NCBI GenBank assembly: GCA_963555825.3
Contig: CAUVXB020000001.1
Location: forward strand, 928,001-992,000
Reading direction: 5' to 3'
Length of the DNA: 64,000 nucleotides
Source: Alphaproteobacteria bacterium
GTDB taxonomy: Bacteria > Pseudomonadota > Alphaproteobacteria > JAAXGF01
The notes under the pieces are model-generated. The model was not told the origin of the DNA and did not search any database. It was given only the letters and a program-made list of their open reading frames with translations. A program made the translations under genes and the position numbers. This document shows, in pieces, positions 6,525 through 25,050 of the stretch. Position 1 is the stretch's first letter; each line of letters starts with the position of its first letter.

Positions 6525-6677
6525 ATCGTTCGACACTCTGCCTCGCCACGGGTGTCCCCCAGGTACGGATAGCTTATCGGTATCAGTCTAGGAGAGGAGG
6601 ATGGCGGAGTCTAACGGTGCCGTGTCGATGACGGCCTTGGCCAAAAGCAGGCAGTGCGGGGTCTGCTTCAAGCGGGC

Positions 6678-6904
6678 CAAAGAAGAAGTCGAAGGCGCTC
6701 TCGGCATCCTTCCTGGTTTCGGCCATCCAGATGTCTTGCAGGCGCCCCTTGGCTTTCTTTTGCGGGGATCTGCTTCCCCAGGAGCGCCGCCAAGGCTTCC
6801 CCGCAAAAGGCTAGCGCGGCAGGATCGCCGACGTGAAGCGGATGGCGCCGTCCCCCCGGTCCCGCACACGGGGTTGGCGCACGCTCACCGGGCCGATCCC
6901 GGTC
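6678..6904 (-). mobile_element. Patchwork of collinear IS256 fragments
   Basis: Blocks identical to ~16210-16290, ~16720-16745 and ~16819-16911, in the same order and orientation. Confidence 0.8.
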
Positions 6905-7199
6905 GGAAGCGGACGCTGTGCGCCGACCTCGCCGACGTCTGCTGCTGACCCAGCCTGTGTGAAAACGCCGGCAAATCCCACTAACAGGAGAGTGTTCGGT
7001 CAATTCTTCGAAGGTGTCCTCTGATAAGATATTGATTTTGTTGAGTTTAGAAATTCGAGAATTCAGAGAAAATCGTGCCGATAGCGCTCGGGGGCGGTTT
7101 TTACACATGGCGTAACTCGGGGATCGGGCACTGCTCTCCTTAATGTAGCAACGACCGGCATGGGCCGGGCGAGCACACTGAAAGAGCAGGAGAGCAGCT

Positions 7200-8265
7200 A
7201 TGGAACTGTATGTTGGAATGGATGTATCGCTCAAGGAGACCTCGATACGCCGCCTTCATTTCAACGCCGTACACAAGATTCTGCGTGGTCGATGACAACG
7301 GCGAGATCGTGTCCGAGGGCGTGGTGATCTCGGAGCCGGCGGCAATCGCGGCGTATATCAGGACAACGGCGCCGCACGCAAAGCGCATCGGTCTGGAGAC
7401 CGGTCCGACGACGACCTGGCTGTGGCATGAGCTCAGGGCGCTCGGCTTGCCGGTGATCTGCATCGATGCGCGTCATGCCAAGGCGGCGCTGTCGATGCAG
7501 ATCAACAAGAGCGACCGGAACGATGCCGCCGGGATCGCGCGGATCATGCAGTGCGGTTGGTACAAGGAGGTCCAAGTCAAGAGCGTGGCGTGCCACGAGA
7601 TACGGGCCGTCCTGAACAGCCGGGCCCAGTTGGTCAAGATCAAGCGTGATCTCGAGAACCAGATCCGTGGCTTGCTCAAGAACCTCGGCCTCGTCATCGG
7701 CAAGGCGGGCGGCAATGTCTTCCGTCGCCGGGTCGAAGAGCTGCTTGGCGGGCAGGGTCTTTTGTCGGAGGCCGTTCGGCCCCTTCTGGAAGTCCGCGAG
7801 AAGGTCGGCCGAGAGATCGCCGCGCTCTATCGCAAGCTGCTGGGCCTGGCGCGGAACGACGAGGACAGCAGACGTTCCATGACGGTTCCAGGCATCGGGC
7901 CGATCACCGCCTTGGCCTTCCACTCGGCGATCGACGAGCCGAGCCGCTTCCGACGTTCCCGGAGTGTCGGCGCGTACATCGGGCTGACGCCGCGCCGCCA
8001 TGCTTCCGGCGAGGTCGATTGGACGGGGCGGATCTCCAAATGCGGCGATCGAATGCTCAGGACCTACCTCTTCGAGGCGGCCGGCGTGCTGCTCACCCGG
8101 GTGCCGCGATGGTGCGCGCTCAAGGCCTGGGGTCACAGGTTGTGGAAACGCATCGGCTTCAAGAAGGCCAAGATCGCCGTGGCACGGAAGCTGGCGGTCA
8201 TCCTCCATCGCATGTGGCGTGATGGAACGGACTTCATCTGGTCAACCAAGGAGGCGGCCGCATAG
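7200..8265 (+). pseudogene. IS110 DEDD recombinase/transposase, frameshifted by a 34-nt insert
   Basis: MELYVGMDVSLKETS then frame change to CVVDDNGE, GLETG, KSDRNDA, VPGIGPITA, GLTPRRHASG, ISKCGD. Confidence 0.88.
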
Positions 8266-8500
8266 GGAAACAACGTCCAAGCATTCCGCGAGAGCGGAAC
8301 CGATGTCCCTGTCGGGACGGCGGCGTCGGCGAGATCGATCCAGGCTTTGCGATGCCTCACCGAGGCAAGCGCGCTTCACACATTGATCCGCCAACGTCCT
8401 CCAACGCCATCATGCGGAGGGCCGAGCCCCTACCGCGGAGAGAACAGTGAACCCGGCAGGTACGTCACGGAGAGCTTGACAACCAACCCCCGAGTTAGAG
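8266..8500 (+). ncRNA. Putative bridge/seek RNA of the first IS110
   Basis: TCCAGGCT 8339-8346 and TTCACACA 8375-8382 match the target; ACGCCAT 8404-8410 and AGAGAACA 8439-8446 match the IS ends; boundaries approximate. Confidence 0.8.
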
Positions 8501-8624
8501 AACATTGATCCGCCAACGTCCTCCAACGCCATCATGCGGAGGGCCGAGCCCCTACCGCGGAGAGAACAGTGAACCCGGCAGGTACGTCACGGAGAGCTTG
8601 ACAACCAACCCCCGAGTTAGAGAA
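8381..8624 (+). repeat. Perfect 122-bp tandem duplication
   Basis: 8381-8502 equals 8503-8624. Confidence 0.95.
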
Positions 8625-8913
8625 CAGCCTGGACCCTATGCGGACATAAGACGTTCTGGGACCGCGTGCCTAATGTCGCCGCCATGACGGCGATTGATCC
8701 CGTAGCATCCCTGTCGCCCGACAGGACGGGCGTGTGCTGCGCGGGTCGAAGTGCGGACCACAGTCTTTCGTGACAGCTCGGGACCGAATACGCGGTCGGA
8801 TGCCCATTCCGCTGTCATTGTTGGCGGTTGTGAGAAGCCATCTGGGGAATTCCGGTTAAGACAGTGGCCTTCTCAACGACCGGCGTTCAAGATAGTACAA
8901 ACCCAATCGAATT

Positions 8914-10461
8914 GTGGCCACCCGTGTCATGGCTGAAGCTACCGTGAACGCCGAACCGCAACATCCCGACCGGTTGACCCTGCGCGGTATGATGATTGCG
9001 CTGTGCGCGACCGTCAGCACTGGGGCCTACGCCTTCACATGGAATTCGGTGGGCGTCGCCCTGCCACGGATGCAGGGCAGCTTCTCGGCGACCACCGATC
9101 AGATCACCTGGGTCGCCATATCGTTCGTCATCGGCAGCGCCATGATGACCGGCTGCATCGGCTGGTTCAGCTCCCGGTTCGGGCGCAAGCAGTTGTTTAT
9201 GTTCTCCATCGCCGGTTATGTGGTGAGCCTGCTGGGCTGCGCCTCGGCCACGACGTTGGGCGAGGAGGTGGTGTGGCGGTTTCTCCAGGGCCTCCTCGGG
9301 GCGCCGATGATGCCGTTGGGTCAGGCCATCGCGGTCAACGCCTTTCCCGCCGACCGACACGCTCAGGCGACGTCGCTATGGGCGCTGGGCTTCGTTTCGG
9401 CCAACGTCTTCTCGCCGGTCATCGCCGGCGGACTGGTCGAGAATTACGGCTGGCCGTGGATCTATTATGTGACGGTGCCCGTCGGCATCGCTGTCTTCAT
9501 CGCCTCGTGGTTCCTGGTGCCGAACGAAGCCAAGGACCCGCGCCCGCTCGACTGGACCGGATTTCTCGCCCTGATCATCGGCGTCGCCACGTTGCAATTG
9601 ATGCTTGCCCGGGGCCAGCGCCTCGACTGGTTCGAGTCCAACGAGATCATCATCGAGGCGGTGGTCGCTGTCATCGCGATTCACGTCTTCATCGTTCATA
9701 CCATTACCGGCAAAAGCCCCTTCGTCGACCGCGCTCTGTTTCGCGACCGCAATTACGCCCTTGGCCAGGTGTTCATCTTCACCGTCGGCGCGGTAATGTT
9801 CCTGCCGCTCCTGTTGCTGCCGCTGCTGATGCAGCAGATCGCCGGCTATCCGCCCATCGAAACCGGCTATCTGCTGTTGCCCCGAGGCATCGGCTCGGTC
9901 CTCGGGCTGCTGGTCATGAGTCAGATGCGCGACCGCGTCGACCCGCGTCCGCTGATCTTCATGGGCCTCGCCACCATGGCCTGGTCGGCCTGGGACATGT
10001 CCCAGTGGACCGTCGAAGTTGGTAGGTGGGACATCGCCTTTCCCAATTTCATGCAGGGTTGCGCCGCCAGTTTTATATGGGCGCCGCTCAACAAGCTGGT
10101 GCTGTCGAACCTGGGCCGGCGATTTCAGGATCAGGGTTACGCGTTGTTCTATCTAAACTTCGATATAGGCAGCGCGCTCGGCACCGCCTCGATCATCGCG
10201 CTTCACGCCCGCCACAGCCAGATCAACCACGCCATCCTCAGCGAGTACGTCAATCCCTTCAACGATTGGTTCCGCATGGGCACCGGGTCGGGCGCCTGGT
10301 CACTGTCCGATAGCAGCAGTCTGGCCGCGATCGAGGTCGAGATCACCCGCCAGGCGACGATGATCTCCTACAACAACAGCTTCATGGTGATCGCCATTTC
10401 ACTGGCCGCGCTGATCCCCCTGATCCTGCTATTCCGCCACCGCCGGCCCAAGGGGCCTTGA
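8914..10461 (+). CDS. DHA2/EmrB-like MFS efflux transporter
   Basis: VALPRMQGSFSATTDQITWV, RFGRKQLF, RFLQGLLG, GQRLDWFES; many hydrophobic segments. Confidence 0.9.
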   Translation: MATRVMAEATVNAEPQHPDRLTLRGMMIALCATVSTGAYAFTWNSVGVALPRMQGSFSATTDQITWVAISFVIGSAMMTGCIGWFSSRFGRKQLFMFSIAGYVVSLLGCASATTLGEEVVWRFLQGLLGAPMMPLGQAIAVNAFPADRHAQATSLWALGFVSANVFSPVIAGGLVENYGWPWIYYVTVPVGIAVFIASWFLVPNEAKDPRPLDWTGFLALIIGVATLQLMLARGQRLDWFESNEIIIEAVVAVIAIHVFIVHTITGKSPFVDRALFRDRNYALGQVFIFTVGAVMFLPLLLLPLLMQQIAGYPPIETGYLLLPRGIGSVLGLLVMSQMRDRVDPRPLIFMGLATMAWSAWDMSQWTVEVGRWDIAFPNFMQGCAASFIWAPLNKLVLSNLGRRFQDQGYALFYLNFDIGSALGTASIIALHARHSQINHAILSEYVNPFNDWFRMGTGSGAWSLSDSSSLAAIEVEITRQATMISYNNSFMVIAISLAALIPLILLFRHRRPKGP

Positions 10462-10544
10462 CACCATAGGCTAAGAAAAATGACCGTTAAGAGATGGGGT
10501 CACACGCAGCTCTCTCCCTCTCCCCGCTGCGTCTTTTCGTCTAC

Positions 10545-11822
10545 TCAGAAGAAGACATAAGATCGGACCACGATGTTCTTGCGGCAGGGAGCGTCGTCGG
10601 GCGCGGTTGGGTCGATGCAGGCAGTGTGGAAAGACCAGCGCGAGACGGAGCCGTCGGTGACAGAGTCATAGCACTTGAGCATCGAGACCTCGGTGGGCTT
10701 CTGCTCGGGAAACCAGTACCACTCGTGGTCGGGGCGGTGGGTGAAGCGGGTGGTCTCGCCGACGCGGTCGTCGTAGACCCGGTAGTTGGTGATGTACGGC
10801 TGGTCGGCGAAAGAGGGCCACGCGCAGAGCACGAAGGGGTTCTGGCGCACGGTCTCCATCGGCTTGGCGAGGTTGATCGACATGAACCGCCGCGACATCT
10901 TCGCGTCGGCCTGCTCCTCCGTGTAGTGCTGCTCGCGCCCGAAGTTTCGCAGGTTCTTCGTGAGCAGCTCGCGGCAGCGCACGCGGCCACTGTTGTCGTT
11001 CAGGTCGTTGTGCACGATGTTGGCGTATTCGACGTTTACACCCGGGTTCTTGTTGTCCTGGTCCTCCGTGCGGTCGCCTTTGTAGTCTTTGTTAAAGACG
11101 TCGTGGTTGTACACGAGCGCGTCTGTCGCGTCCGGGAAGGACGCCAAGAGGAGCTTCTCCATCTCCGGGTAGAAGACGCGCTCCACCTCCGCCGCGTCGT
11201 AGAAGTCCTCGCACTTGGACTCGCAGTGAGCCAACGCGACACCGAGCCTGTCCATGCACGCCGGGCTGTAGGGCGAGAGTCCTGGGTAGTATTCCTCCAT
11301 CCGTCGCGCGTCGCGCAACACCTGCGGAAAGTAGAGGCATCGCCGCCCGGTGTCCTCCTCGGCCTTGCGCAACGCCTTTGTCTCGGCCTCGCGCGCCGGG
11401 TCCCGCCAAAGTGCGTTGGACGACACGACGGAGTAGGACGGCTGCTCGTTGATGGTGTAGCGCAGCGGCAGCGCGACACCGCCTTCAGGGACTTCGATGT
11501 TGTTCGCCCGAATGTACTCCAAGCACTCATCGTAGCCACGAAACCCGACGCCCCACCTGGTTTCGATCGGGCCGGGGGGAGCGTTCTCGAGCATGTCGAT
11601 AACCGCCTGGCCCTTGCCCTCGGCAATCTGGATGAGCGCCGCCTCCGTCGCCGCGGCGGTTCCCGCATCCCCGCCCCGATCGAACGACATGTAGGATAAA
11701 CCTCCGTTCGCAGCGATGGGTGGTGGCTGCCCTTCTGTGAGTTGGAGGGGAGGCACATAGGCCGACGAAACTGTCGCCGCAACCGACGCAACGTGGTTCT
11801 CGATGACCTTGAGCCGGTCCAT
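10545..11822 (-). CDS. CmcJ/NvfI-like oxidoreductase with long N-terminal extension
   Basis: VHND, HEWYWFPEQKPTEV..LKCYDS, SFHTACIDP, RKNIVVRSYVFF resemble this family; start taken at MDRLK. Confidence 0.65.
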   Translation of the reverse strand: MDRLKVIENHVASVAATVSSAYVPPLQLTEGQPPPIAANGGLSYMSFDRGGDAGTAAATEAALIQIAEGKGQAVIDMLENAPPGPIETRWGVGFRGYDECLEYIRANNIEVPEGGVALPLRYTINEQPSYSVVSSNALWRDPAREAETKALRKAEEDTGRRCLYFPQVLRDARRMEEYYPGLSPYSPACMDRLGVALAHCESKCEDFYDAAEVERVFYPEMEKLLLASFPDATDALVYNHDVFNKDYKGDRTEDQDNKNPGVNVEYANIVHNDLNDNSGRVRCRELLTKNLRNFGREQHYTEEQADAKMSRRFMSINLAKPMETVRQNPFVLCAWPSFADQPYITNYRVYDDRVGETTRFTHRPDHEWYWFPEQKPTEVSMLKCYDSVTDGSVSRWSFHTACIDPTAPDDAPCRKNIVVRSYVFF

Positions 11823-11943
11823 AGCATGCTCCCGGTTAAAAACACCCCATCGTGGCACACAGGGCTTGTATTTGTTAGGGCTTGTATTTCTTGGTCACAC
11901 GAACGTACGCCCGCCTGCCGCGCAGCCAATGTCCGAAAATGGG

Positions 11944-13171
11944 GGCGGTCTCAATGGGTCGACGCAACACTTTATCTTGAACGAAGAGATGGAGTGTATG
12001 CAGATGACGCGAAGAAATGGTCGAGGGTTCAGTTCGGCAGAGAAGACGGAGCTTTGGGACCGCTGGCAACGCGGGGAGTCGTTGAAGGCGATTGGTCGGG
12101 TGTTTGGTAAGCCGTCGTCGTCGATTTATTTCCAACTATCGCCGCACGGCGGGATCCGGCCTTCGCCACGACGGCGCTCGCGGCTGGCGTTGAGCCTATG
12201 GGAACGCGAGGAGATCTCACGGGGGATCGTGGCCCGGCACTCGATCCGATCGATGGCGTTGTTGCTGAGCCGGTCGCCCTCGACGGTGAGCCGGGAAGTT
12301 CGCCGCAATGGCGGTTATGATCAGTATCGTGCCGCGCTTGCCGATGACATGGCCTGGGCTCGAGCGCGACGCCCGAAGCGATGTAAGCTGGCACTGAGTT
12401 CGGGGATGCGGCGGGTGGTGGCGATGAAGCTCGGGTTGAACTGGTCACCGGAGCAGATCGCCGGATGGCTCAAGCGAGCGCATCCAGGAGCTGGGTCTTA
12501 TCAGGTGTCTCACGAGACGATCTATCGCAGTTTGTTTGTTCAAGCCCGCGGTGTGCTTAAGAAGGAGCTGCTTCAGCATCTTCGATCGAAGCGCACGATC
12601 CGACGCTCGAAAGAGGCGCGCCGGAAAGGCGTTGGCCGGGGTCAAATCACGGACATGGTGTCGATCCGTGAGCGCCCGGCCTCGGTCGAAGATCGGGCGG
12701 TGCCGGGTCACTGGGAAGGTGATCTGTTGTCGGGATCGAAGAACAGCTACATCGCGACCCTGGTCGAACGTCAAACGCGTTACGTGATGTTGGTAAAGGT
12801 TGCCAACAAGGAAACCCTGACAGTGGTATCCGCGCTCATCAGGCAGGCGAGGAAGCTGCCGACCGAGCTCTACAAGTCCCTGACCTGGGACCGGGGCAAG
12901 GAACTCGCGGACCATCGCCGGTTCAGCTTGGCGACCGACATCGATGTCTACTTCTGTGATCCGCAAAGCCCGTGGCAACGGGGTTCCAATGAGAACACTA
13001 ATGGCCTGCTCAGACAGTACTTCCCCAAAGGCACCGACGTGTCGGTATACTCGCAGGCTCATCTGAACAAAGTGGCGCGTCAGCTCAACGAACGGCCACG
13101 CAAAACCTTGGGGTTTGAAACACCGGCAGAGAGATTCAACGCTTGTGTTGCATCGACCGGTTGAGGCGGCA
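11944..13171 (+). mobile_element. IS30 family element
   Basis: 26-bp imperfect IRs GGCGGTCTCAATGGGTCGACGCAACA / TGTTGCATCGACCGGTTGAGGCGGCA; flanking GG duplication. Confidence 0.9.
12004..13164 (+). CDS. IS30 transposase
   Basis: WSPEQIAG, GHWEGDL, LTWDRGKE, PWQRGSNENTNGLLRQYFPKG; start could be 11998. Confidence 0.95.
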   Translation: MTRRNGRGFSSAEKTELWDRWQRGESLKAIGRVFGKPSSSIYFQLSPHGGIRPSPRRRSRLALSLWEREEISRGIVARHSIRSMALLLSRSPSTVSREVRRNGGYDQYRAALADDMAWARARRPKRCKLALSSGMRRVVAMKLGLNWSPEQIAGWLKRAHPGAGSYQVSHETIYRSLFVQARGVLKKELLQHLRSKRTIRRSKEARRKGVGRGQITDMVSIRERPASVEDRAVPGHWEGDLLSGSKNSYIATLVERQTRYVMLVKVANKETLTVVSALIRQARKLPTELYKSLTWDRGKELADHRRFSLATDIDVYFCDPQSPWQRGSNENTNGLLRQYFPKGTDVSVYSQAHLNKVARQLNERPRKTLGFETPAERFNACVASTG

Positions 13172-13312
13172 GGTAGTAGCTGACATTGCGACGGATTAGC
13201 CAGCATGTCCGGTTCCCGCTCGTAAGCAGATGGGGTGGATGGCTCCCGCTCCCGGCACCGAGATGCCAAAGTGGTGGTTGTTATCAACCACGAGCAAGAG
13301 GAGCTATCCGCC

Positions 13313-13668
13313 ATGAAAGTTACCACTGTCGGCCTCGATCTGGCCAAGAACGTTTTCCAAGTCCACGGCATTGACAGCACCGGCAAGGTCATCGTCCGCC
13401 GATCGTTGCGCCGGCGCCAGATGATGCCGTTCTTCGGCAAGCTGGAACCGTGTCTGATCGGTATCGAGGCGTGCGGCACGAGCCACTTCTGGTCCCGCGA
13501 GCTCCAGGCATTGGGGCACGAGGTGAAATTGATGCCACCGATCTACGTCAAACCATACGTCAAGCGCGGCAAGACCGACGCCGCCGATGCGGAGGCGATC
13601 TGCGAGGCGGTGACTGACGCGCCCCACGATGCGGTTCGTCGCGATCAAGTCGGCCGAGCAGCAATCGG
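13313..13668 (+). pseudogene. IS110 transposase N-terminal fragment
   Basis: MKVTTVGLDLAKNVFQVHG, GIEACG, KTDAADAEAICEAV; small TGAC duplication near 13612; cut by the IS3-like element. Confidence 0.9.
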
Positions 13669-13703
13669 TGTATCGCACCCGGTTCCTTGGACACAAGTTT
13701 GTC

Positions 13704-14615
13704 TCATGCGGCGGGCCTGAGTGACATCGCGGTGTGCCACGCCTGACGAGCTTGAGCGGGGCTCAGGTAGCCGTTCTTCTCCACGATCCACTGGGCATTG
13801 TACTGTTCGACGAACCCGCGGACGGCGTTCCGCAGCTCCGCGATGTTGCGGTAGATGCGGCCATGGATGATCTGTTCCTTGAGCGTGCGATTGAACCTCT
13901 CGGCGACGCCGTTGGTCTGGGGCTGTTCGACGAAGGCGTAGGACGGCTGGATGCCCCAGAACTTGATCTGGTTGGTGAAGTGGTCCGACAGATACTGGGA
14001 GCCGTGATCCATCCGCAAGGCCAGCCCCCGCGCCGCACCGGCGGAGGTCGAGGCATACAGCCTCGCAAGCCCCATGGAGATCGGCTGAAGGGCGGCGAAG
14101 CGGTCGCCTCGCTTGCACACATGCCAGCCGACGCACTCGGCGTTCCAATGCTCGATGGCGGTGAATATCCAGCCCCAGCCGTCGTCCACCGTGAACACCC
14201 GAACGCCGTCCGTGCCCCACATGAGGTTGGGGGCATGGGTGATGATCTCACCGACATGGGGATTTCCGCCACGGCGGCGGCAGCGATGGGGCGAGAGCAG
14301 GTTGTTCTCGCGCATCACCCGGAGCCCCCGCTTGCGGGAAACACGGATGCCACGACAGACCCGAAGCCGAGCCCAGACCTTGCGGTGTCCCTCGCCCTCC
14401 CAGGGGGATGCCTCCAGGTCGGCCTCGATGGCCACCAGCAGAGCCTCGTCCGAGATCGAGGGCTTCGGTCCCCGGCGCTTTGCTGGTGGGCGCTCAGCGG
14501 TGGCCTGCTGCCGGGATTTCATGGCGTAGAACGAGGAACGGGCAAAACCCCAGGCCGCACAGACCCGCTGGAGGCCGTAGGCCAAACCCGTGCCGGGAGA
14601 GGTGGCGGCACTCAT
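13704..14615 (-). CDS. IS3-like OrfB, integrase-core DDE transposase
   Basis: WGTD, RMDHGSQY, PQTNGVAERFNRTLKE. Confidence 0.9.
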   Translation of the reverse strand: MSAATSPGTGLAYGLQRVCAAWGFARSSFYAMKSRQQATAERPPAKRRGPKPSISDEALLVAIEADLEASPWEGEGHRKVWARLRVCRGIRVSRKRGLRVMRENNLLSPHRCRRRGGNPHVGEIITHAPNLMWGTDGVRVFTVDDGWGWIFTAIEHWNAECVGWHVCKRGDRFAALQPISMGLARLYASTSAGAARGLALRMDHGSQYLSDHFTNQIKFWGIQPSYAFVEQPQTNGVAERFNRTLKEQIIHGRIYRNIAELRNAVRGFVEQYNAQWIVEKNGYLSPAQARQAWHTAMSLRPAA

Positions 14616-15043
14616 CGCCGCGACCTCCGCCGCCCCAAAGGGCCGGACGTCTCCGTCTTGGCCTCCAGCAGTTCCACCTGCATGATCAACTCCCCGATCC
14701 GCTTCATGGCGATGTCCAGTTCCGCCTTCACCGGATCGCCCTTGCGTTCCTTGAGCGAGGCATCGATCCCGGCGATCGCCTTCTCACGCCACTGCTCGAG
14801 CCGGAAAATCTCCACGCCCAACTGCCGCGACAAAAGTTCCACCGGCTCGCCACGCAAAAGCCGCAGGGCAACCTCACGCTTGCGCGTCACCGTCCACCGC
14901 TGGCCAAGTCCCAGCGGGCCTGCCGGCGAAACCTGGCCCGGGGAAAACGTGGACGAGCCAAGCTCGCCCTCGTTTACCACAGGCCCATCAACAGCAACTT
15001 TGTTCTCAAAATTGTCGGTCATGTTCCGGTCCTCCTTGGACAC
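14612..15043 (-). CDS. IS3-like OrfA, HTH protein
   Basis: RKREVALRLLRGE, KRIGEL; ATGA overlap with orfB. Confidence 0.8.
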   Translation of the reverse strand: MSKEDRNMTDNFENKVAVDGPVVNEGELGSSTFSPGQVSPAGPLGLGQRWTVTRKREVALRLLRGEPVELLSRQLGVEIFRLEQWREKAIAGIDASLKERKGDPVKAELDIAMKRIGELIMQVELLEAKTETSGPLGRRRSRR

Positions 15044-15847
15044 TTCGATTAAGCCAATTCTGTGTCCAAGGAAATCGGGTCCGACTCACAAAGGGCTACT
15101 CGCCGCGGCGGCTGACGGCAGACGAGGAAGCGGCGCTGGCGGCGGTCATCATCGCCGGGCCGGAGCCTGAGCGCGACGGGGTTTGCGCCTGGACCCGGGC
15201 CGATCTGTGCCGCTGGCTGGAGGAGCGCTTCGCCAAGACCTACCACCCCTCGAGCATGACCCGGGTTCTACGGCGGATGGGATTTTCCCGCCAGAAGGCG
15301 CGCCCGAGCCACCCGCGAAGGGACGCCGAAGCGCAGGAGCGCTTCAAAAAAGGGGGCTTCGCGACATCCTGAAGGCGACCGCCGCGGCGCATCCCGACAA
15401 GCGCCTACAGCTGTGGTTTCAGGATGAAGCGCGCGTCGGCAACAAGGGCCGGGTGTGTCACCGGTGGTGGCGCAGGGGCGAGCGTGCCCCCGGGACGCGT
15501 CAAATCGGCTACCAGTGGGCCTACATCTTCTCCGCCGTGCGCCCGGACACCGGCGACGACGTCACCCTGGTGATGCCGAGCGTCAACGCCAAGGTCATGG
15601 ACCTGTTTCTCGCACACTTCGCCGATACCCTGGACCAGGATGCGCACGCCGTCATGATGTGCGACGGCGCCGGTTGGCACGACGAGCGCGCCCTCACCGT
15701 CCCCGACAACGTCACCTTGGCGCTGTTGCCGCCTTACAGTCCCGAACTCAACCCCGTCGAGCGGGTTTGGCTCTACCTACGCGAACGCTTCCTATCGCTC
15801 CGCGTCCTCGACGACACCGAGGCCATCATCGACGCCTGTTGCCAAGC

Positions 15848-17222
15848 GAGCTATTGTCAAAAGTTGTGTATGGGCTGATCATGCGGCGGCGCGATCCTGG
15901 CGTTCTCCATCTACGAATTTGACGCCGCGAATGATCTCGGCGAGATGGTTCGATCCATCGAGTTTTCTCCATTTTCTCTGAGCGCACTGGCATAGTTTGA
16001 AGACCATGGCCATCGCCGTCTTGCGCGACAGGCAGCCCTTGGTCCGGTAGGTGCGCAGACGAACCGTGGCGAACGTGCTCTCGATGGGGTTGGTCGTGCG
16101 TACATGCTTCCAGTGCTCGGCGGGGAAGTCGTAGAACGTCAGCAGGACGTCGCGGTCCTTGGCCAGGCAGGCCGCGGCCTTGTCGTACTTCGGCCCGTAG
16201 GCTTCCAGGAAGAAGTCGAAGGCGCTCTCGGCATCCTTCCTGGTTTCGGCCATCCAGATGTCTTGCAGGCGCCCCTTGGCTTTCTTTTGCAGACCCTTGG
16301 GCAGCTTGTTCAAGACGTTGCCCGTCTTGTGAACCCAGCAGCGTTGCTCGCGGGCGCCTGGGTAGACTTGGCGGAGCGCCTTCCAGAAGCCGAGCGCGCC
16401 GTCGCCGAGCGCCAGTTGCGGACCCATTTCAAGGCCGCGCCGCTTGAGATCGAGCAGAACTTCGAGCCAGGACTGCTCACTTTCGCGATAGCCGTCGGCG
16501 ATGGCGATCAGTTCCTTCTGTCCCTTGTCCGTGGCCCCGACGATCACCAGGATGCACTGCTTCTCTTCCTCCATGCGGGCGCTGAAATAGATGCCGTCCA
16601 CCCAGAAATAGACGTAGCGCTTGGCCGTGAGGTCGCGCCGTTGCCAGCGCTCCGCCTCAACCCCCCAGACCTCTTTCAGCCGGGTGATCGTGGAGGCCGA
16701 AAGCCCCGGCGCGGAGCTCCCCAGGAGCGCCGCCAAGGCTTCCCCGAAGTCGCCGGTGGAAATGCCCTTCAGATACAGCCATGGCAAAAGGTCTTCCAGG
16801 CTCTTGGCGCGGCGCAGATAGCGCGGCAGGATCGCCGACGTGAAGCGGATGGCGCCGTCCCCCCGGTCCCGCACACGGGGTTGGCGCACGCTCACCGGGC
16901 CGATCCCGGTCTGGATGAAGCGTTCCGGCAGATATCCATTGCGGACAACCCGGCGGCGGCCGGCGGCGTCAACAAGCGCCGCATGGCTACCCAAAAACAC
17001 GGAGACCTCGGCCTCAACGGCTTGGGCCAACAACTCGCGAGCTCCAGCTTGTAGGACTTCCGTCAACGGATCTTTCTGAAAATCAGATGGGTTTTGAAAA
17101 GCAACAACGGTATTCTCTTTCATGGCGTATCCTTCCTTGGCTTAGCTCAAGTGGTGACATCAACAATCACCAGGATACGCCGCCTTCATTTCAACGCCGT
17201 ACACAAGATTCGGTTATAGCTC
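15848..17222 (-). mobile_element. IS256 family element, intact
   Basis: IRs GAGCTAT.../...ATAGCTC; 9-bp target duplication TTGCCAAGC at 15839-15847 and 17223-17231. Confidence 0.95.
15879..17123 (-). CDS. IS256 transposase
   Basis: YFWVDGIY, GDGALGFW, QRCWVHK, RTTNPIES. Confidence 0.95.
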   Translation of the reverse strand: MKENTVVAFQNPSDFQKDPLTEVLQAGARELLAQAVEAEVSVFLGSHAALVDAAGRRRVVRNGYLPERFIQTGIGPVSVRQPRVRDRGDGAIRFTSAILPRYLRRAKSLEDLLPWLYLKGISTGDFGEALAALLGSSAPGLSASTITRLKEVWGVEAERWQRRDLTAKRYVYFWVDGIYFSARMEEEKQCILVIVGATDKGQKELIAIADGYRESEQSWLEVLLDLKRRGLEMGPQLALGDGALGFWKALRQVYPGAREQRCWVHKTGNVLNKLPKGLQKKAKGRLQDIWMAETRKDAESAFDFFLEAYGPKYDKAAACLAKDRDVLLTFYDFPAEHWKHVRTTNPIESTFATVRLRTYRTKGCLSRKTAMAMVFKLCQCAQRKWRKLDGSNHLAEIIRGVKFVDGERQDRAAA

Positions 17223-17312
17223 TTGCCAAGCATGGATCGACCTCATCGCAGAACCGGATCGTATGCGAACCCTCTGCGCCTATCCATGGATCATGAAGGT
17301 GATTTCATAGGC

Positions 17313-17720
17313 TCACTGGTATAACATGGCTAGAGGTACCAAGATAACCAATCTCTGTAAGATAATAATACCCCACGCTTTCCACAAACCGCCACTCAAT
17401 ATCCAAGTATCAAAAAAGAAAAAAGCAGGCCACGAAAACCCTACTTTTATGACTTCAGCCTCGTCATCCTCCGATATTTGGTAGATATCATAGGATCGTC
17501 CTGTTGTTTGATTTTCGGAAGATGAAGAGTTTGGCCCGATTATATGTGTAGCTTTCTGTGGCCTGATTTCTTCACCGCGTCGGAGCAAGATTTCTCTTGC
17601 CACATCCATCGCCTCACTCGTCCAATTTTCCCTGTTATTTTCAATCCAAAGGGAATGTAGCTCTTCGGTCGATTTTGGTTCTAACGACTGACGAATGCTC
17701 TTGTGTTGTTCGCTATCCAT
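17313..17720 (-). pseudogene. Low-GC DUF2628-like membrane protein, 3'-truncated by IS630
   Basis: KVGFSWPAFFF motif; ORF runs into the IS630 end at TA 17320-17321. Confidence 0.6.
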
Positions 17721-18038
17721 TTGTTCTCGCCTTCCTCGGAGAGCCGGAGCACCGTCGCGCCGCCATTTCCCAGATAACCTTTAAACCGGGATTCTCCAGA
17801 TGGCTTCTCCCAGCCACCTACAATGATAGTAGAATGGGCATCCGAGCGTGTATCCGGCTCTGCACTGGCACAATCGGCTGTCGTACGCACTTGATCGGGC
17901 TGATGTGTGACCTTATCGCTTTGTGTGTCATCCCGGTACGCTTGGGACAGTCGGTACGCTTTTAAGAGACAGACTTCTGACGCTGGCTCGCCGCCTTCGC
18001 CGTCTGCTGGTGATCGGCATGACATCACAGCTTCAATC

Positions 18039-18210
18039 GGCACGGCGCAAGCCCGAGGTTCACCCCTGGATCACCAACTTGCTGGTAAGCAAGCCCAACA
18101 AGCTGGTCGCCGTGGCCATGGCCAACAAGGCCGCGCGGATCGCCTGGGTCATCATGACCCGTGGCGAGGCCTACCGCGCTCACCGACCCGCAACTGAGGA
18201 GACCGCATGA
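18039..18210 (+). pseudogene. IS110 transposase C-terminal fragment
   Basis: HPWITNLL..KPNKLVAVAMANKAARIAWVIMTRGEAY. Confidence 0.85.
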
Positions 18211-18495
18211 CCAATTGATCGCTCGAAGGCACAACGCTTTCGACGATTGCAAGGACGACGAGACGTGATGGCGAACCGGTCAGACCGGGGATCGGGACAA
18301 CCCGACCAATGTCCTGGGTGTTCGAGCCCGCTAAGCGGACAACCCGACGAATGTCCTGGGTGTTCGAGCCCGCTAAGCAGATAGGGACCCGATCCACGGA
18401 TACCATCAGGGCCAGCGGTTCAACAAAACCGCATCAACAGGCCGGACACAAGACTGTACCTGACTAGGTCGCTACGCCGAAAAAAGTCCTTGCAA
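18211..18495 (+). ncRNA. Putative bridge/seek RNA of the second IS110, target loop duplicated (42 bp x2)
   Basis: AATGTC 18308/18350 and TAAGCGGA 18332 / TAAGCAGA 18374 match the target; CCATC 18403 and ACACAAGA 18446 match the IS ends; boundaries approximate. Confidence 0.72.
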
Positions 18496-18757
18496 CGCGG
18501 GAGCCATCCACACAGGACGTTACTGCACTGAATTTCCAAGCCTCGGCCTCGATGGTCCGCTATCCGCTCCAAAGCGGTCGCCCAGCGTGTGAGCCGCCGA
18601 AGTCGGTTGCTGACCCGAAGACGACCTTGGGGGTCCCGTGGACATCGGCGACAACCCGAAAAACAGTTCACTAAAGCAGGCAAAAATTTATGTTTGCCTT
18701 TCAGTCAAGCAGTGTCGGAACGTGGGACACTGGGTTGTCGTCGAAAATGAGGCGCAC

Positions 18758-20065
18758 ATGCAGGATCGAGAGACGTCCGATACCGAGAGCGATCTGATTT
18801 CGCGGGCAGCGAGGGTCCTGCCCGCCGGCGGTTTCGGCAATCTCGACCCTGGCATCGTCATTCGCGAGGGTCGCGGCGGCCGCGTCTGGGACGAGAGCGG
18901 CAACGAATATGTCGACTTTCTCATCGGCTCGGGCCCGATGCTGCTGGGCCACGGAAATCCCGAGGTCATCGAGGTGGTCGAGGCGCAACTGCGCAAGGGC
19001 GTGACATTCTTCACCTCGAACGCCGCCGGAATCGAGCTCGCCGAAGCGATCTGCGATGCGGTCGCCTGCGCCGAGCAACTGCGCTATGTCAGCACCGGCT
19101 CCGAGGCCGACATGTACGCCATGCGTCTCGCCCGCGCCCATACCGGCCGCGAGAAGATCCTGAAGTTCGAGGGCGGCTACCACGGCATGTCGGGCGAAGC
19201 GCTGATGAGCCTTGTCCCACGGCGGCTCGAAAATTTCCCACGTGCGATTTCCGATTCGGCGGGCATCCCGGAAGCCGTGCGCGACAGCGTGCTGGTGGCG
19301 CCCTTCAACGACGCCGCGTTCGCAAGGCAGCTCATCGCGGAATATGCCGACGAGATCGCCGGCGTGATCGTCGAGCCCTTTCAGCGGCTGATTCCGCCCG
19401 AGACGGGTTTTCTCGAGGCGCTGCGAGAGGCGACGACCGAGCACGGCATCGTGCTGATCTTCGACGAAGTCGTCACCGGCTTCCGACTGGCTTATGGCGG
19501 CGCGCAAGAACGCTACGGCGTGACGCCCGATCTCTGTACGCTCGGCAAGGTGATCGGCGGCGGCTTCCCGTTGGCCGCGATCGCCGGGCGCGCAGAGTTG
19601 ATGGCGCATTTCGACAAATCGAAAGTCGGCGCCGACGGCTTCACCTTTCAGGTCGGCACGCTGAGCGGCAATCCGGTCGCGGCCGTCGCCGGCCTGAAGA
19701 CATTGGAAATCCTGCGCCGCCCGGGCAGCTATGAGGGCATGCGCAAGACCGGGCGCGCGATCATGGCGGCGCTCGAGGCGAACCTGGCCCGCGTTGGCGT
19801 GCCGGCCCGCGTGGTCGGCGATCCAATGGTCTTCGACGCGGTCTTCACGGACCAGCCGGTCGTCGACTATCGCGGCACTCTGTGCGGCGACGTCGACCGC
19901 CTCCAGCGATTCAACATGGCCTTGCGGGCGCGGGGCGTCTTGAAAAACGGGAACAAGTTCTATATCGCGCTGGCCCATGACGCGACCGATATCGCCGACA
20001 CCAGGGAAGCGATCGAATTCGCGGCGGATTTCCTCGCCGATGTTCCCGATCGTGGTGGCGGCTGA
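18758..20065 (+). CDS. Class III aminotransferase (glutamate-1-semialdehyde aminomutase-like)
   Basis: STGSEA, KFEGGYHG, LIFDEVVTGFR, LGKVIGGGFP, GTLSGNP. Confidence 0.9.
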   Translation: MQDRETSDTESDLISRAARVLPAGGFGNLDPGIVIREGRGGRVWDESGNEYVDFLIGSGPMLLGHGNPEVIEVVEAQLRKGVTFFTSNAAGIELAEAICDAVACAEQLRYVSTGSEADMYAMRLARAHTGREKILKFEGGYHGMSGEALMSLVPRRLENFPRAISDSAGIPEAVRDSVLVAPFNDAAFARQLIAEYADEIAGVIVEPFQRLIPPETGFLEALREATTEHGIVLIFDEVVTGFRLAYGGAQERYGVTPDLCTLGKVIGGGFPLAAIAGRAELMAHFDKSKVGADGFTFQVGTLSGNPVAAVAGLKTLEILRRPGSYEGMRKTGRAIMAALEANLARVGVPARVVGDPMVFDAVFTDQPVVDYRGTLCGDVDRLQRFNMALRARGVLKNGNKFYIALAHDATDIADTREAIEFAADFLADVPDRGGG

Positions 20066-24817: not shown

Positions 24818-25050
24818 CTAGAGATCGCGTCCGCTTTTCGCCGGGTAGGCAAGGGAGCCGCGGGCGATGCAGCGCATCGTCAAGGCTGCCTGACGCCCGC
24901 CGGCGATAAGCGGACGCGACCCGAAGGGCGGCTTGCCGTGGCTCTCGCCCGCTATCAGACTGGCGGACGTCGTTGCGCCCGCCTTGCGATGCCTAGCATC
25001 GCCGCGACGGGCGCGCCTAGCCGAGAACCACGGCAAGCCGTCTCTGGGGG
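24818..25050. repeat. Structured intergenic element with two long hairpins (MITE-like)
   Basis: TCGCGTCCGCTTTTCGCCGG pairs with CCGGCGATAAGCGGACGCGA; CGGCTTGCCGTGGCTCTCG pairs with CGAGAACCACGGCAAGCCG. Confidence 0.65.

Follow-up and report, generated by a model that had tools for sequence, protein, structure and literature searches.

We analysed a set of short imperfect palindromes in a 64,000-nt stretch of alphaproteobacterial DNA, hereafter the window (G000:C1:928001-992000). The genome in which it lies, G000, amounts to 6.04 Mb in two contigs (C1 and C2) with 65% G+C. The palindromes form two arrays, array A at 6660-8645 and array B/C at 11928-18625, both of which are broken up by insertion sequences (ISs) that are partly nested within one another. 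Three types of hairpin, named W, X and Y, make up the arrays; in a doublet the first hairpin is called X and the second Y. An initial annotation of the window had listed six palindrome half-sites, and reading the sequence places all six where that annotation had put them. The components of array A are listed below, including a miniature inverted-repeat transposable element (MITE) and the open reading frame (ORF) of an IS transposase.

6660-6669, plus strand: 5' part of the X unit (A1), GGTCTGCTTC, read in the sequence
6670-6904, no strand: insertion in the X loop, consisting of AAGCGGGCCAAA and three internal IS256 pieces, with no IS ends
6905-6914, plus strand: 3' part of the X unit, GGAAGCGGAC; doublet profile hit at 6897-6952, E 1.6e-8 genome-wide
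6937-6951, plus strand: 5' part of the Y unit (A2), GTCTGCTGCTGACCC, including the first GACCC copy (6947-6951)
6952-7107, plus strand: left and main part of the MITE, with a terminal repeat, AGNCTGTGTRAAAAC, common to an IS1182-family element
7108-8624, plus strand: IS110-1, of the IS110 family; transposase ORF at 7210-8265, NF033542 238 bits
8627-8636, plus strand: end of the MITE, GCCTG (8627-8631), and the second GACCC copy (8632-8636)
8637-8647, plus strand: TATGCGGACAT, with the 3' part of the Y unit at 8637-8645; the same right halves stand beside other copies

Array B/C is made up as follows.

11928-11942, plus strand: 5' part of the W unit (B1), AATGTCCGAAAATGG, compared by eye with intact W units elsewhere
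11943-13172, plus strand: IS30-family element in the W loop, left boundary +/-3 nt; NF033563 294 bits
13173-13187, plus strand: 3' part of the W unit, GTAGTAGCTGACATT
13207-13229, plus strand: X0 unit (B2), GTCCGGTTCCCGCTCGTAAGCAG; unit hit of 24 bits, E 2.8e-6 in the window
13230-18516, plus strand: IS110-2, a gutted IS110 element of the IS1111 type, whose own parts are 13230-13663 and 17995-18516
13669-15090: IS3-family element inside IS110-2
~15089-15847 and 17213-17322: 5'-truncated IS630-family element inside IS110-2
15848-17212: complete IS256 inside the truncated IS630-family element
17323-17994: unique AT-rich DNA inside IS110-2, 670 nt, 48% G+C
18517-18518, plus strand: last two bases (AC) of X0
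18555-18579, plus strand: X1 unit (palindrome C1), intact
18602-18625, plus strand: Y unit (palindrome C2), intact and unoccupied; doublet hit over model positions 5-90, E 6.8e-16

The initial annotation had described three doublets, A, B and C. Their palindromes are present, but B and C are not separate: they belong to one four-hairpin array that is split by the IS30-family element and IS110-2, and only IS debris lies between them. With both ISs removed, the reconstructed array reads W, 19 nt, X0, 36 nt, X1, 22 nt, Y. The spacer from X to Y is likewise 22 nt in array A, where the X loop is filled by pieces of IS256 at 6682-6763, 6775-6803 and 6812-6904. These pieces are collinear with two internal deletions, and each is 100% identical to part of the IS256 at 15848-17212 (16209-16290, 16718-16746 and 16819-16911, respectively). 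The patchwork at 6670-6904 looks like a templated patch rather than the result of transposition. A metagenome contig from the public run labelled X1 has 34 letters in place of 6654-6902, which give an uninterrupted X hairpin, GTCTGCTTCGCGCTCGGAAGCGGAC; upstream, the same contig matches with 1 mismatch in 1022 nt.

The X unit is 25 nt long and has the form GTCYGCT-N11-AGCRGAC, a 7-11-7 geometry. Perfect copies of this pattern number 23 in the genome; of three control motifs matched in composition one occurs once and two are absent, and the reversed pattern is absent as well. A looser pattern with 6+6 stems is not enriched (124 observed, 127-130 in Markov simulations) and was dropped in favour of the strict 7+7 pattern and profiles; since only the strict units are enriched, the family is a well-defined one of modest size. 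Starting from the 23 perfect units alone, an iterated nhmmer profile found 85 units in 64 clusters. In the 18 clusters with several units, the gaps between neighbouring X units are 32-36 nt in 19 of 21 cases and 44 nt in the other 2, and neighbours share one orientation, as judged by their loops, in 16 of the 18. Spacers align between array copies, which fall into spacer subfamilies. The three hairpin types follow one another in a fixed order with conserved spacers, W first, then one or two copies of X, then Y. A BLAST search with 6899-6970 returned 11 relatives in the genome, all of which have GTCCGGTTACCGCTCGRAAGCGGAC, a spacer of ~21 nt and CGTCTGCTGCTGACCC, and in all 11 the element beginning AGNCTGTGTRAAAAC starts at the identical base.

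Open frames of >=300 aa span 14 of the 64 clusters, compared with 79% of random unique positions, which is a crude proxy for extragenic location. In copy number, in extragenic location and in the mosaic clusters with conserved linkers, the family resembles palindromes of the repetitive extragenic palindrome (REP) and bacterial interspersed mosaic element (BIME) type. An Rfam scan of the window at gathering thresholds gave nothing but a tRNA, and blastn of the array against the plasmid collection returned no match. We also considered a mini-array akin to clustered regularly interspaced short palindromic repeats, with 25-nt repeats and 32-36-nt spacers, and rejected it because the spacers are conserved between loci. 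The housekeeping part of the window contains no canonical doublet by profile search, in agreement with the initial annotation. A long hairpin does occur in the non-IS part at 24829-24915, with ends GCGTCCGCTT.TCGCC ... GGCGATAAGCGGACGC; its arms are the same as those of the X unit and stand ~55 nt apart, and a distant kinship with the family is possible.

The family extends beyond this genome. Of 12 other genomes from the same bacterial family, 7 contain the strict X pattern (controls give 0-1 copies), and one of them, G001, from a different genus, holds 40 strict copies. On the G001 contigs inspected, which were those picked for several hits, the arrays are W-X-Y triplets with a period of 46-47 nt, and their W loop (TATGGCTA-type) and Y loop (TGACCC-type) match those of the studied genome. 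The triplets lie between genes for an aminotransferase, a major facilitator superfamily (MFS) transporter, an ATP-binding cassette (ABC) ATPase, a protease and others. With a more specific X pattern, 21 stretches were found in the species collection, mostly in metagenome-assembled genomes (MAGs) of uncultured Alphaproteobacteria, and five MAG stretches (L047, L055, L057, L060 and L065) contain complete, unoccupied W-X0-X1-Y arrays with the same spacers.

These intact arrays bear on whether the palindromes could be by-products of the ISs, that is, parts of their ends, footprints or duplications. Most high-scoring doublets do adjoin an IS, and both complete IS30 copies are preceded by the same 18 nt, a left half that has no free copy in the genome. 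The doublet profile gives 49 hits at E <= 5e-5; by manual count 29 end at the insertion point, 16 of which were training sites of the profile, and 8 run through Y. The latter are unoccupied doublets, namely C of the window and 7 more. Flanks are 75-86% alike, against 95-100% identity among the IS copies, and the 8-9 nt between the IS30 end and the GGACAT motif differ in every copy. Together with the IS-free whole arrays in other genomes, these observations make a by-product origin the least probable of the explanations we weighed, and the intact arrays largely refute it.

The association between arrays and mobile elements is strong. Within 100 nt of 24 of the 64 clusters there is a repeat-block boundary; 500 random draws gave 2.1 on average and 9 at most. 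Four IS lineages occupy fixed points, which bears out the earlier description of the palindromes as landing sites of several IS families: the IS30-family element lies in the W loop, IS110-2 in the 3' arm of X, the IS1182-family IS and its MITE in the Y loop, and IS110-1 in the terminal repeat of the MITE.

The best documented of these is the IS1182-family element, which begins with AGNCTGTGT and is 1.69 kb long. Its transposase scores 451 bits with NF033551 (curated cut-off 270) and is 67-72% identical to those of IS1182-like elements on plasmids, and the element has both terminal inverted repeats and a target duplication. We reconstructed 22 full copies, of which 16 have identical 5-nt duplications, GACCC in 13. 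A clear X-Y doublet surrounds 16 of the 22, and these 16 copies were used to build the doublet profile. When the IS is removed, GTCTGC-NNN-TGACCC-NNNG-CRGAC is restored. The terminal repeat AGNCTGTGTRAAAAC, shared by the IS and the MITEs, has 66 ends in the genome; GACCC abuts 31 of them and the complement-side GGTCC 21 (52/66), and a loose pattern finds a GTCYG-like arm 10-15 nt from the end in 45 of the 66 flanks. A count that is independent of profile ascertainment agrees with this: in 22 of the 64 X clusters the terminal repeat occurs 58-67 nt into a stretch that was taken from 3 nt ahead of the last X unit onwards. The MITE itself is ~160 nt long and has four solo copies in the genome at 84-92% identity.

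The two IS110-type elements also sit at fixed positions (a caret marks each junction). Transposases of the DEDD and Transposase_20 type are encoded by both element types, and the match of IS110-1 to NF033542 and that of an intact IS110-2 copy (L039, 319 bits) exceed the cut-off of 140 bits. Each element type has one short target, and in each a non-coding region lies downstream of the transposase gene. For IS110-1, all seven listed left junctions read ...TTTTTACACA^TGGCG, inside a MITE terminal repeat (six copies are 100% identical to the query and one 93%), and five of the listed right junctions lead into (C)AGCCTG or AGTCTG and then into GACCC-type Y halves. In the window its insertion point in the right terminal repeat of the MITE is TTACA-CA^GCCTGG. 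For IS110-2, the left flank ends in CAG in 6 of 6 copies (AGCAG in 4), and the right flank starts with AC in 6 of 8 (ACATT in 5, ACGTT in the window); joined, the flanks (AGCAG^ACAT) give the 3' arm AGCAGACAT. The subterminal repeats of IS110-2, GGATGGCTCCCGC and GCGGGAGCCATCC, form a 13-nt inverted pair, and relative to the intact copy the window's element is missing 466 nt of its interior. At C2:2559709 an IS110-2 copy and an IS1182-type MITE share one Y unit.

The non-coding regions of both elements contain tandem duplications, exact or nearly so. The right non-coding part of IS110-1, with the right end, is present twice (8380-8501 and 8502-8623, 2 x 122 nt); other copies of this element hold further repeats (C2:1372475-1373005). 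In IS110-2 the downstream non-coding region has a tandem duplication at 18295-18378 (2 x 42 nt). A solo 38-nt right end of IS256 lies within the IS110-1 transposase ORF at 7244-7281; contigs of two public runs carry the IS110 sequence without it, with a joint that skips 34 nt.

The IS30 family, which also includes IS1655, is represented by the element in the W loop. All five right junctions lead into 8-9 variable bases followed by GGACAT (4) or TGACAT (1), and by eye these right flanks are like the right-hand half of W units that stand intact in other genomes. Contigs from four public runs do not bridge the empty sites of the MITE/IS110-1, IS30 or IS110-2 insertions; contigs break at repeats, so that the missing bridges are uninformative on presence or absence. 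The one alternative allele that these runs yielded for the insertions into the arrays is that lacking the IS256 patchwork. Further elements also interrupt W- or Y-type units at C2:1503363 and C2:3498644 and at C1:28218 and C1:30661, with junctions at fixed points, ...GTCTCCTTAT^ATGAGGCG... and ...TGACC^TAATTCTGTTGAAAAAC..., which suggests that the arrays serve additional IS or MITE lineages.

Three genes stand beside or between the arrays. GC3 denotes G+C content at third codon positions.

8914-10461, plus strand: MFS transporter gene, PF07690 154.7 bits; GC 62.5%, GC3 0.85
10545-11858, minus strand: CmcJ/NvfI-family oxidoreductase gene with an N-terminal extension; NF041278 140.9 bits over residues 201-437
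18638-20065, plus strand: class-III aminotransferase gene, adjoining array B/C; PF00202 199.8 bits

The MFS and CmcJ-like genes are a convergent pair and the only non-IS genes between arrays A and B/C. Their GC3 (0.84-0.85) is like that of neighbouring genes. The CmcJ-like gene has distant matches only, and the best match of the aminotransferase is 62% identical among 30 relatives searched, none of the same genus. A weaker look-alike of the doublets that had been noted at 10480-10512 has no profile hit; a short way downstream of it, in the gap between the convergent genes, there is by eye a hairpin of terminator type.

This gene content was among the grounds for an earlier proposal that the doublets may be gene-capture sites, analogous to the attC sites of integrons or to the pdif sites of Xer recombination, at which a recombinase encoded elsewhere would move the intervening genes as cassettes. 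Like such modules, the arrays are imperfect palindromes beside unrelated genes; they flank single genes or pairs of unrelated function both here and in G001, they are clumped in some regions, and palindromic 7-11-7 units with conserved, non-covarying arms would suit a dimeric DNA-binding protein. The remaining evidence is contrary. The interval from B to C holds nothing but IS, a single convergent gene pair separates the two arrays, arrays also occur among metabolic genes in another genus, and in the studied genome they are scattered singly over two replicons and not gathered in a single cassette array. The core sites of attC are GTTRRRY and its inverse, with variable sequence between them, and Xer sites such as pdif are 28 bp long, with two 11-bp arms and a 6-bp centre, and stand as inverted pairs around a module. 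The array units differ from both: they have no GTTRRRY core, their arms are GTCYGCT and AGCRGAC, their geometry is not 11-6-11, they are tandem and direct, and their sequence and not merely their structure is conserved, with spacers and loops that are kept as in a repeat family, the loops across genera. No association with an integrase or an Xer-type recombinase is seen. The window holds no tyrosine recombinase, as had been noted before, and no recombinase co-occurs with the arrays elsewhere: the genome has 45 tyrosine-recombinase matches, of which a single one falls within 2 kb of a cluster (64 clusters in all), where ~2 would be expected by chance. No circle or array-array joint was found in the four public runs, which is weak evidence given that contigs break at repeats. 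We consider it highly improbable that the arrays are cassette boundaries.

The other earlier suggestion, of REPIN-like units (REP doublets forming hairpins) exploited by IS, fared better in part. The arrays are indeed dispersed extragenic palindromes with IS at fixed points. Like the REPINs described together with REP-associated tyrosine transposases (RAYTs), they occur in pairs or clusters and persist across related lineages, in a genome that also has RAYT-like genes, as far as the sources used here go (PMC3337134, PMC3116915). Under a REPIN model the arrays would be non-autonomous elements copied in trans by one of three RAYT-like tyrosine transposases. Three Y1-transposase genes match the RAYT model at 78.5, 67.8 and 68.2 bits, all below the cut-off of 80, and the spacer subfamilies are what a replicating population would show. 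Neighbouring units are complementary at the variable stem position in 25 of 42 cases, compared with 11 of 39 within units, and X0 and Y have mutually reverse-complementary arms in several arrays.

The arrays are not strictly REPINs, and they differ from the REPIN-RAYT systems of those sources (PMC3337134, PMC3116915). W, X or Y units flank no RAYT gene; the RAYT-like genes are each accompanied by another palindrome family; and units are direct by their loops in 16 of 18 multi-unit clusters. Across 12 RAYT loci from the studied genome and 7 relatives, including G001, an X-type unit stands beside the gene in none; a loose pattern gives two off-consensus matches, in L003 and L028. The doublet profile has no hit in the three loci of the studied genome, L001-L003, even at E 100. 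Copying of the arrays by one of these transposases is therefore unlikely in our judgement. The three loci are at C2:1867017, C1:1325246 and C2:2727747, and the palindromes beside them are of the GGGGTCAGAC type, the AT-rich TATATACTGCTTACG type and GTAGGGGCGGGTTTCAAACCCGCCCCTAC, respectively; since each has its own palindromes, the genome contains at least four unrelated families of extragenic palindromes.

A side observation concerns folding. In the array at L060:91-276 (minus strand) the arms of X0 (GTCCGCT...AGCAGAC) match the exact reverse complement of those of Y or X1 (GTCTGCT...AGCGGAC), as is the case in several arrays, and the whole array can thus fold as one long hairpin enclosing X1. 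A single long hairpin that pairs X0 with Y is predicted for L060 with z = -2.5. The array copies are kin, so the complementarity counts are not independent and folding into a long hairpin is a lead only.

The explanation we favour, with a probability of roughly 85%, is that the palindromes belong to a lineage-wide family of REP-like extragenic repeats, set in BIME-like mosaic arrays that several IS lineages target, and that the intervening genes are not captured cassettes. Several results weigh against this explanation. The stem arms are nearly invariant, and their sole variable pair, at position 4, is C-G in 31 units, C/A in 17, T/G in 16 and T-A in 6. The stems of the family are thus without compensatory change or covariation, so that selection may act on the duplex palindrome just as well as on a hairpin; the window's X1-Y doublet folds no better than shuffled sequences (z = -0.75). 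REP families are usually larger than this one, which has ~64 loci in 6 Mb. Both arrays of the window lie between divergently oriented genes, and this is not known as the commonest position of REPs in Escherichia coli. A cognate RAYT or other mobiliser was not found for the arrays. The assignment of B1 as a W unit is a by-eye likeness to W units of other genomes, and the 18-nt identity of the left flanks of the two complete IS30 copies means that part of the left half of B1 could belong to the IS. The commonest ISs of the genome, of the IS3, IS630 and IS256 types, are nested in other ISs in the window, and targeting of arrays by them is not seen.

The wider genome is saturated with ISs. A share of 28-30% is repeated (at least one other copy, >=200 nt, >=90% identity), and 795 repeat blocks have at least two other copies. 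This share is unusually high for a free-standing genome of 6 Mb and would suit a lifestyle in association with a host. ISs have multiplied on a very large scale in this genome. By a hit-depth table in which the window copy is counted, the IS3-family element at 13669-15090 has ~85 copies, the IS630-family element ~75 and the left part of IS110-2 ~17, and IS256 has ~52, of which ~38 are near-identical and 14 are at 72% identity. The unique part of the studied region is present in public runs labelled sponge metagenome, and sediment and marine runs give shares of 0.45-0.51. Inside IS110-2, the AT-rich insert lies between the IS630 end and the IS110-2 interior and overlaps a 135-aa ORF at 17313-17720 (43% G+C) with no match in Pfam or NCBIfam. 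An unclassified repeat of ~110-180 nt, 70-89% alike, occurs at 8678-8858, just upstream of the MFS gene, and in inverted orientation at 17772-17907, within the unique AT-rich insert; the genome has about six further copies.

The data show the family, how its arrays are built, that they stand intact in other genomes and that the insertion points are fixed; on the explanation favoured here, several IS lineages have target specificities that fit parts of the array. An IS30-family element inserts in the W loop, and IS110-2, an IS1111-type IS110 element, in the 3' arm of X at AGCAG^ACAT. An IS1182-family element and its MITE insert in the Y loop with duplication of GACC(C), and the terminal repeat of this MITE receives IS110-1, the second IS110-type element. 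Two arrays, each struck repeatedly and in nested fashion, thus stand in the window, and the genes between them would be ordinary neighbours of intergenic repeats. We infer that IS110-1 and IS110-2 recognise their targets by an RNA guide, whereas the IS30 and IS1182 elements probably recognise the hairpin or palindrome by protein. A target that is extragenic and present in many copies may let these ISs multiply at little cost. The messy 12-kb stretch is in this way explained as two intergenic arrays with nested insertions, and the case for a new gene-capture system is thereby removed.

One could go further and see in W-X-X-Y an undescribed, RAYT-independent composite repeat of a marine or sponge-associated alphaproteobacterial family, in which each hairpin type is the private site of one IS lineage and the whole array, foldable from X0 to Y, replicates by way of an unknown mobiliser. 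We regard this broader proposal as possible but doubtful. Under the more restrained account of REP-like arrays, the locus is a clear case from nature in which several IS families, two of which would be RNA-guided by analogy with related elements, share one multi-copy extragenic target. It bears on how ISs attain very high copy number in symbiont-like genomes and on the choice of natural targets for programmable IS110-type recombinases.

The closest precedent is the survey of Tobes and Pareja (2006; PMC1525189), which in the parts used here presents REPs as specific targets of members of the IS3, IS110, IS4, IS256 and IS5 families, with IS1397, ISKpn1, IS621, ISPpu9/10, ISPa11, ISRm22 and ISRm19 as examples. 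As in those cases, the arrays consist of short, clustered extragenic palindromes that are split by ISs of several families, each at one fixed point, and the repeat is rebuilt by joining both flanks; one of the insertion points falls on the axis of the palindrome, as is reported for ISRm22. Unlike the REPs treated in those parts, the arrays belong to another sequence family and have three hairpin types in a fixed order, although this family may coincide with a described alphaproteobacterial REP. The targeting families also differ, in that they include IS1182 and IS30, neither of which is among the five named there. IS30 is mentioned in the parts used solely for target binding through a helix-helix-turn-helix (H-HTH) motif, and IS1655 stands in Table 1, below that paper's criteria (PMC1525189). 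The nested targeting of an IS110 element to a MITE within a hairpin is likewise unlike the cases set out there.

For the IS1182-family element, the comparison is with IS1272 as covered in the part of PMC5678879 used here. Both have an IS1182-family transposase, and copies of both land in hairpin-forming repeats. IS1272 is reported to make no duplications and to have an 'IR-replacing' mode, unlike the clear 4-5-bp duplication GACC(C) in the hairpin loop seen here.

The IS110-type elements are best compared with the RNA-guided ISs of the IS1111 and IS110 groups. In the sections of the seekRNA paper used here, subterminal inverted repeats and a long downstream non-coding part are the marks of the IS1111 type (PMC11187229), and the targeting by IS110-type elements is now explained by guide RNAs (PMC11187229; bridge RNA, PMC11208160). 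The elements of the window share with these systems a DEDD transposase with Transposase_20, subterminal inverted repeats, a long non-coding region that follows the gene, and one short target for all copies. REPs are the targets of IS621 and ISPpu9/10, and the position of IS110-1 in the MITE repeat is the same behaviour as that of IS4321 and IS5075, which target the terminal repeats of another transposon (cited in PMC11187229). Unlike the reference systems as presented in these sources, IS110-1 and IS110-2 carry tandem duplications in the non-coding region. Since REP targeting, IS110 guide RNAs and the targeting of inverted repeats by IS1182 elements are already on record, the behaviour of these ISs is a known one, and the repeat family itself is a further example of it.

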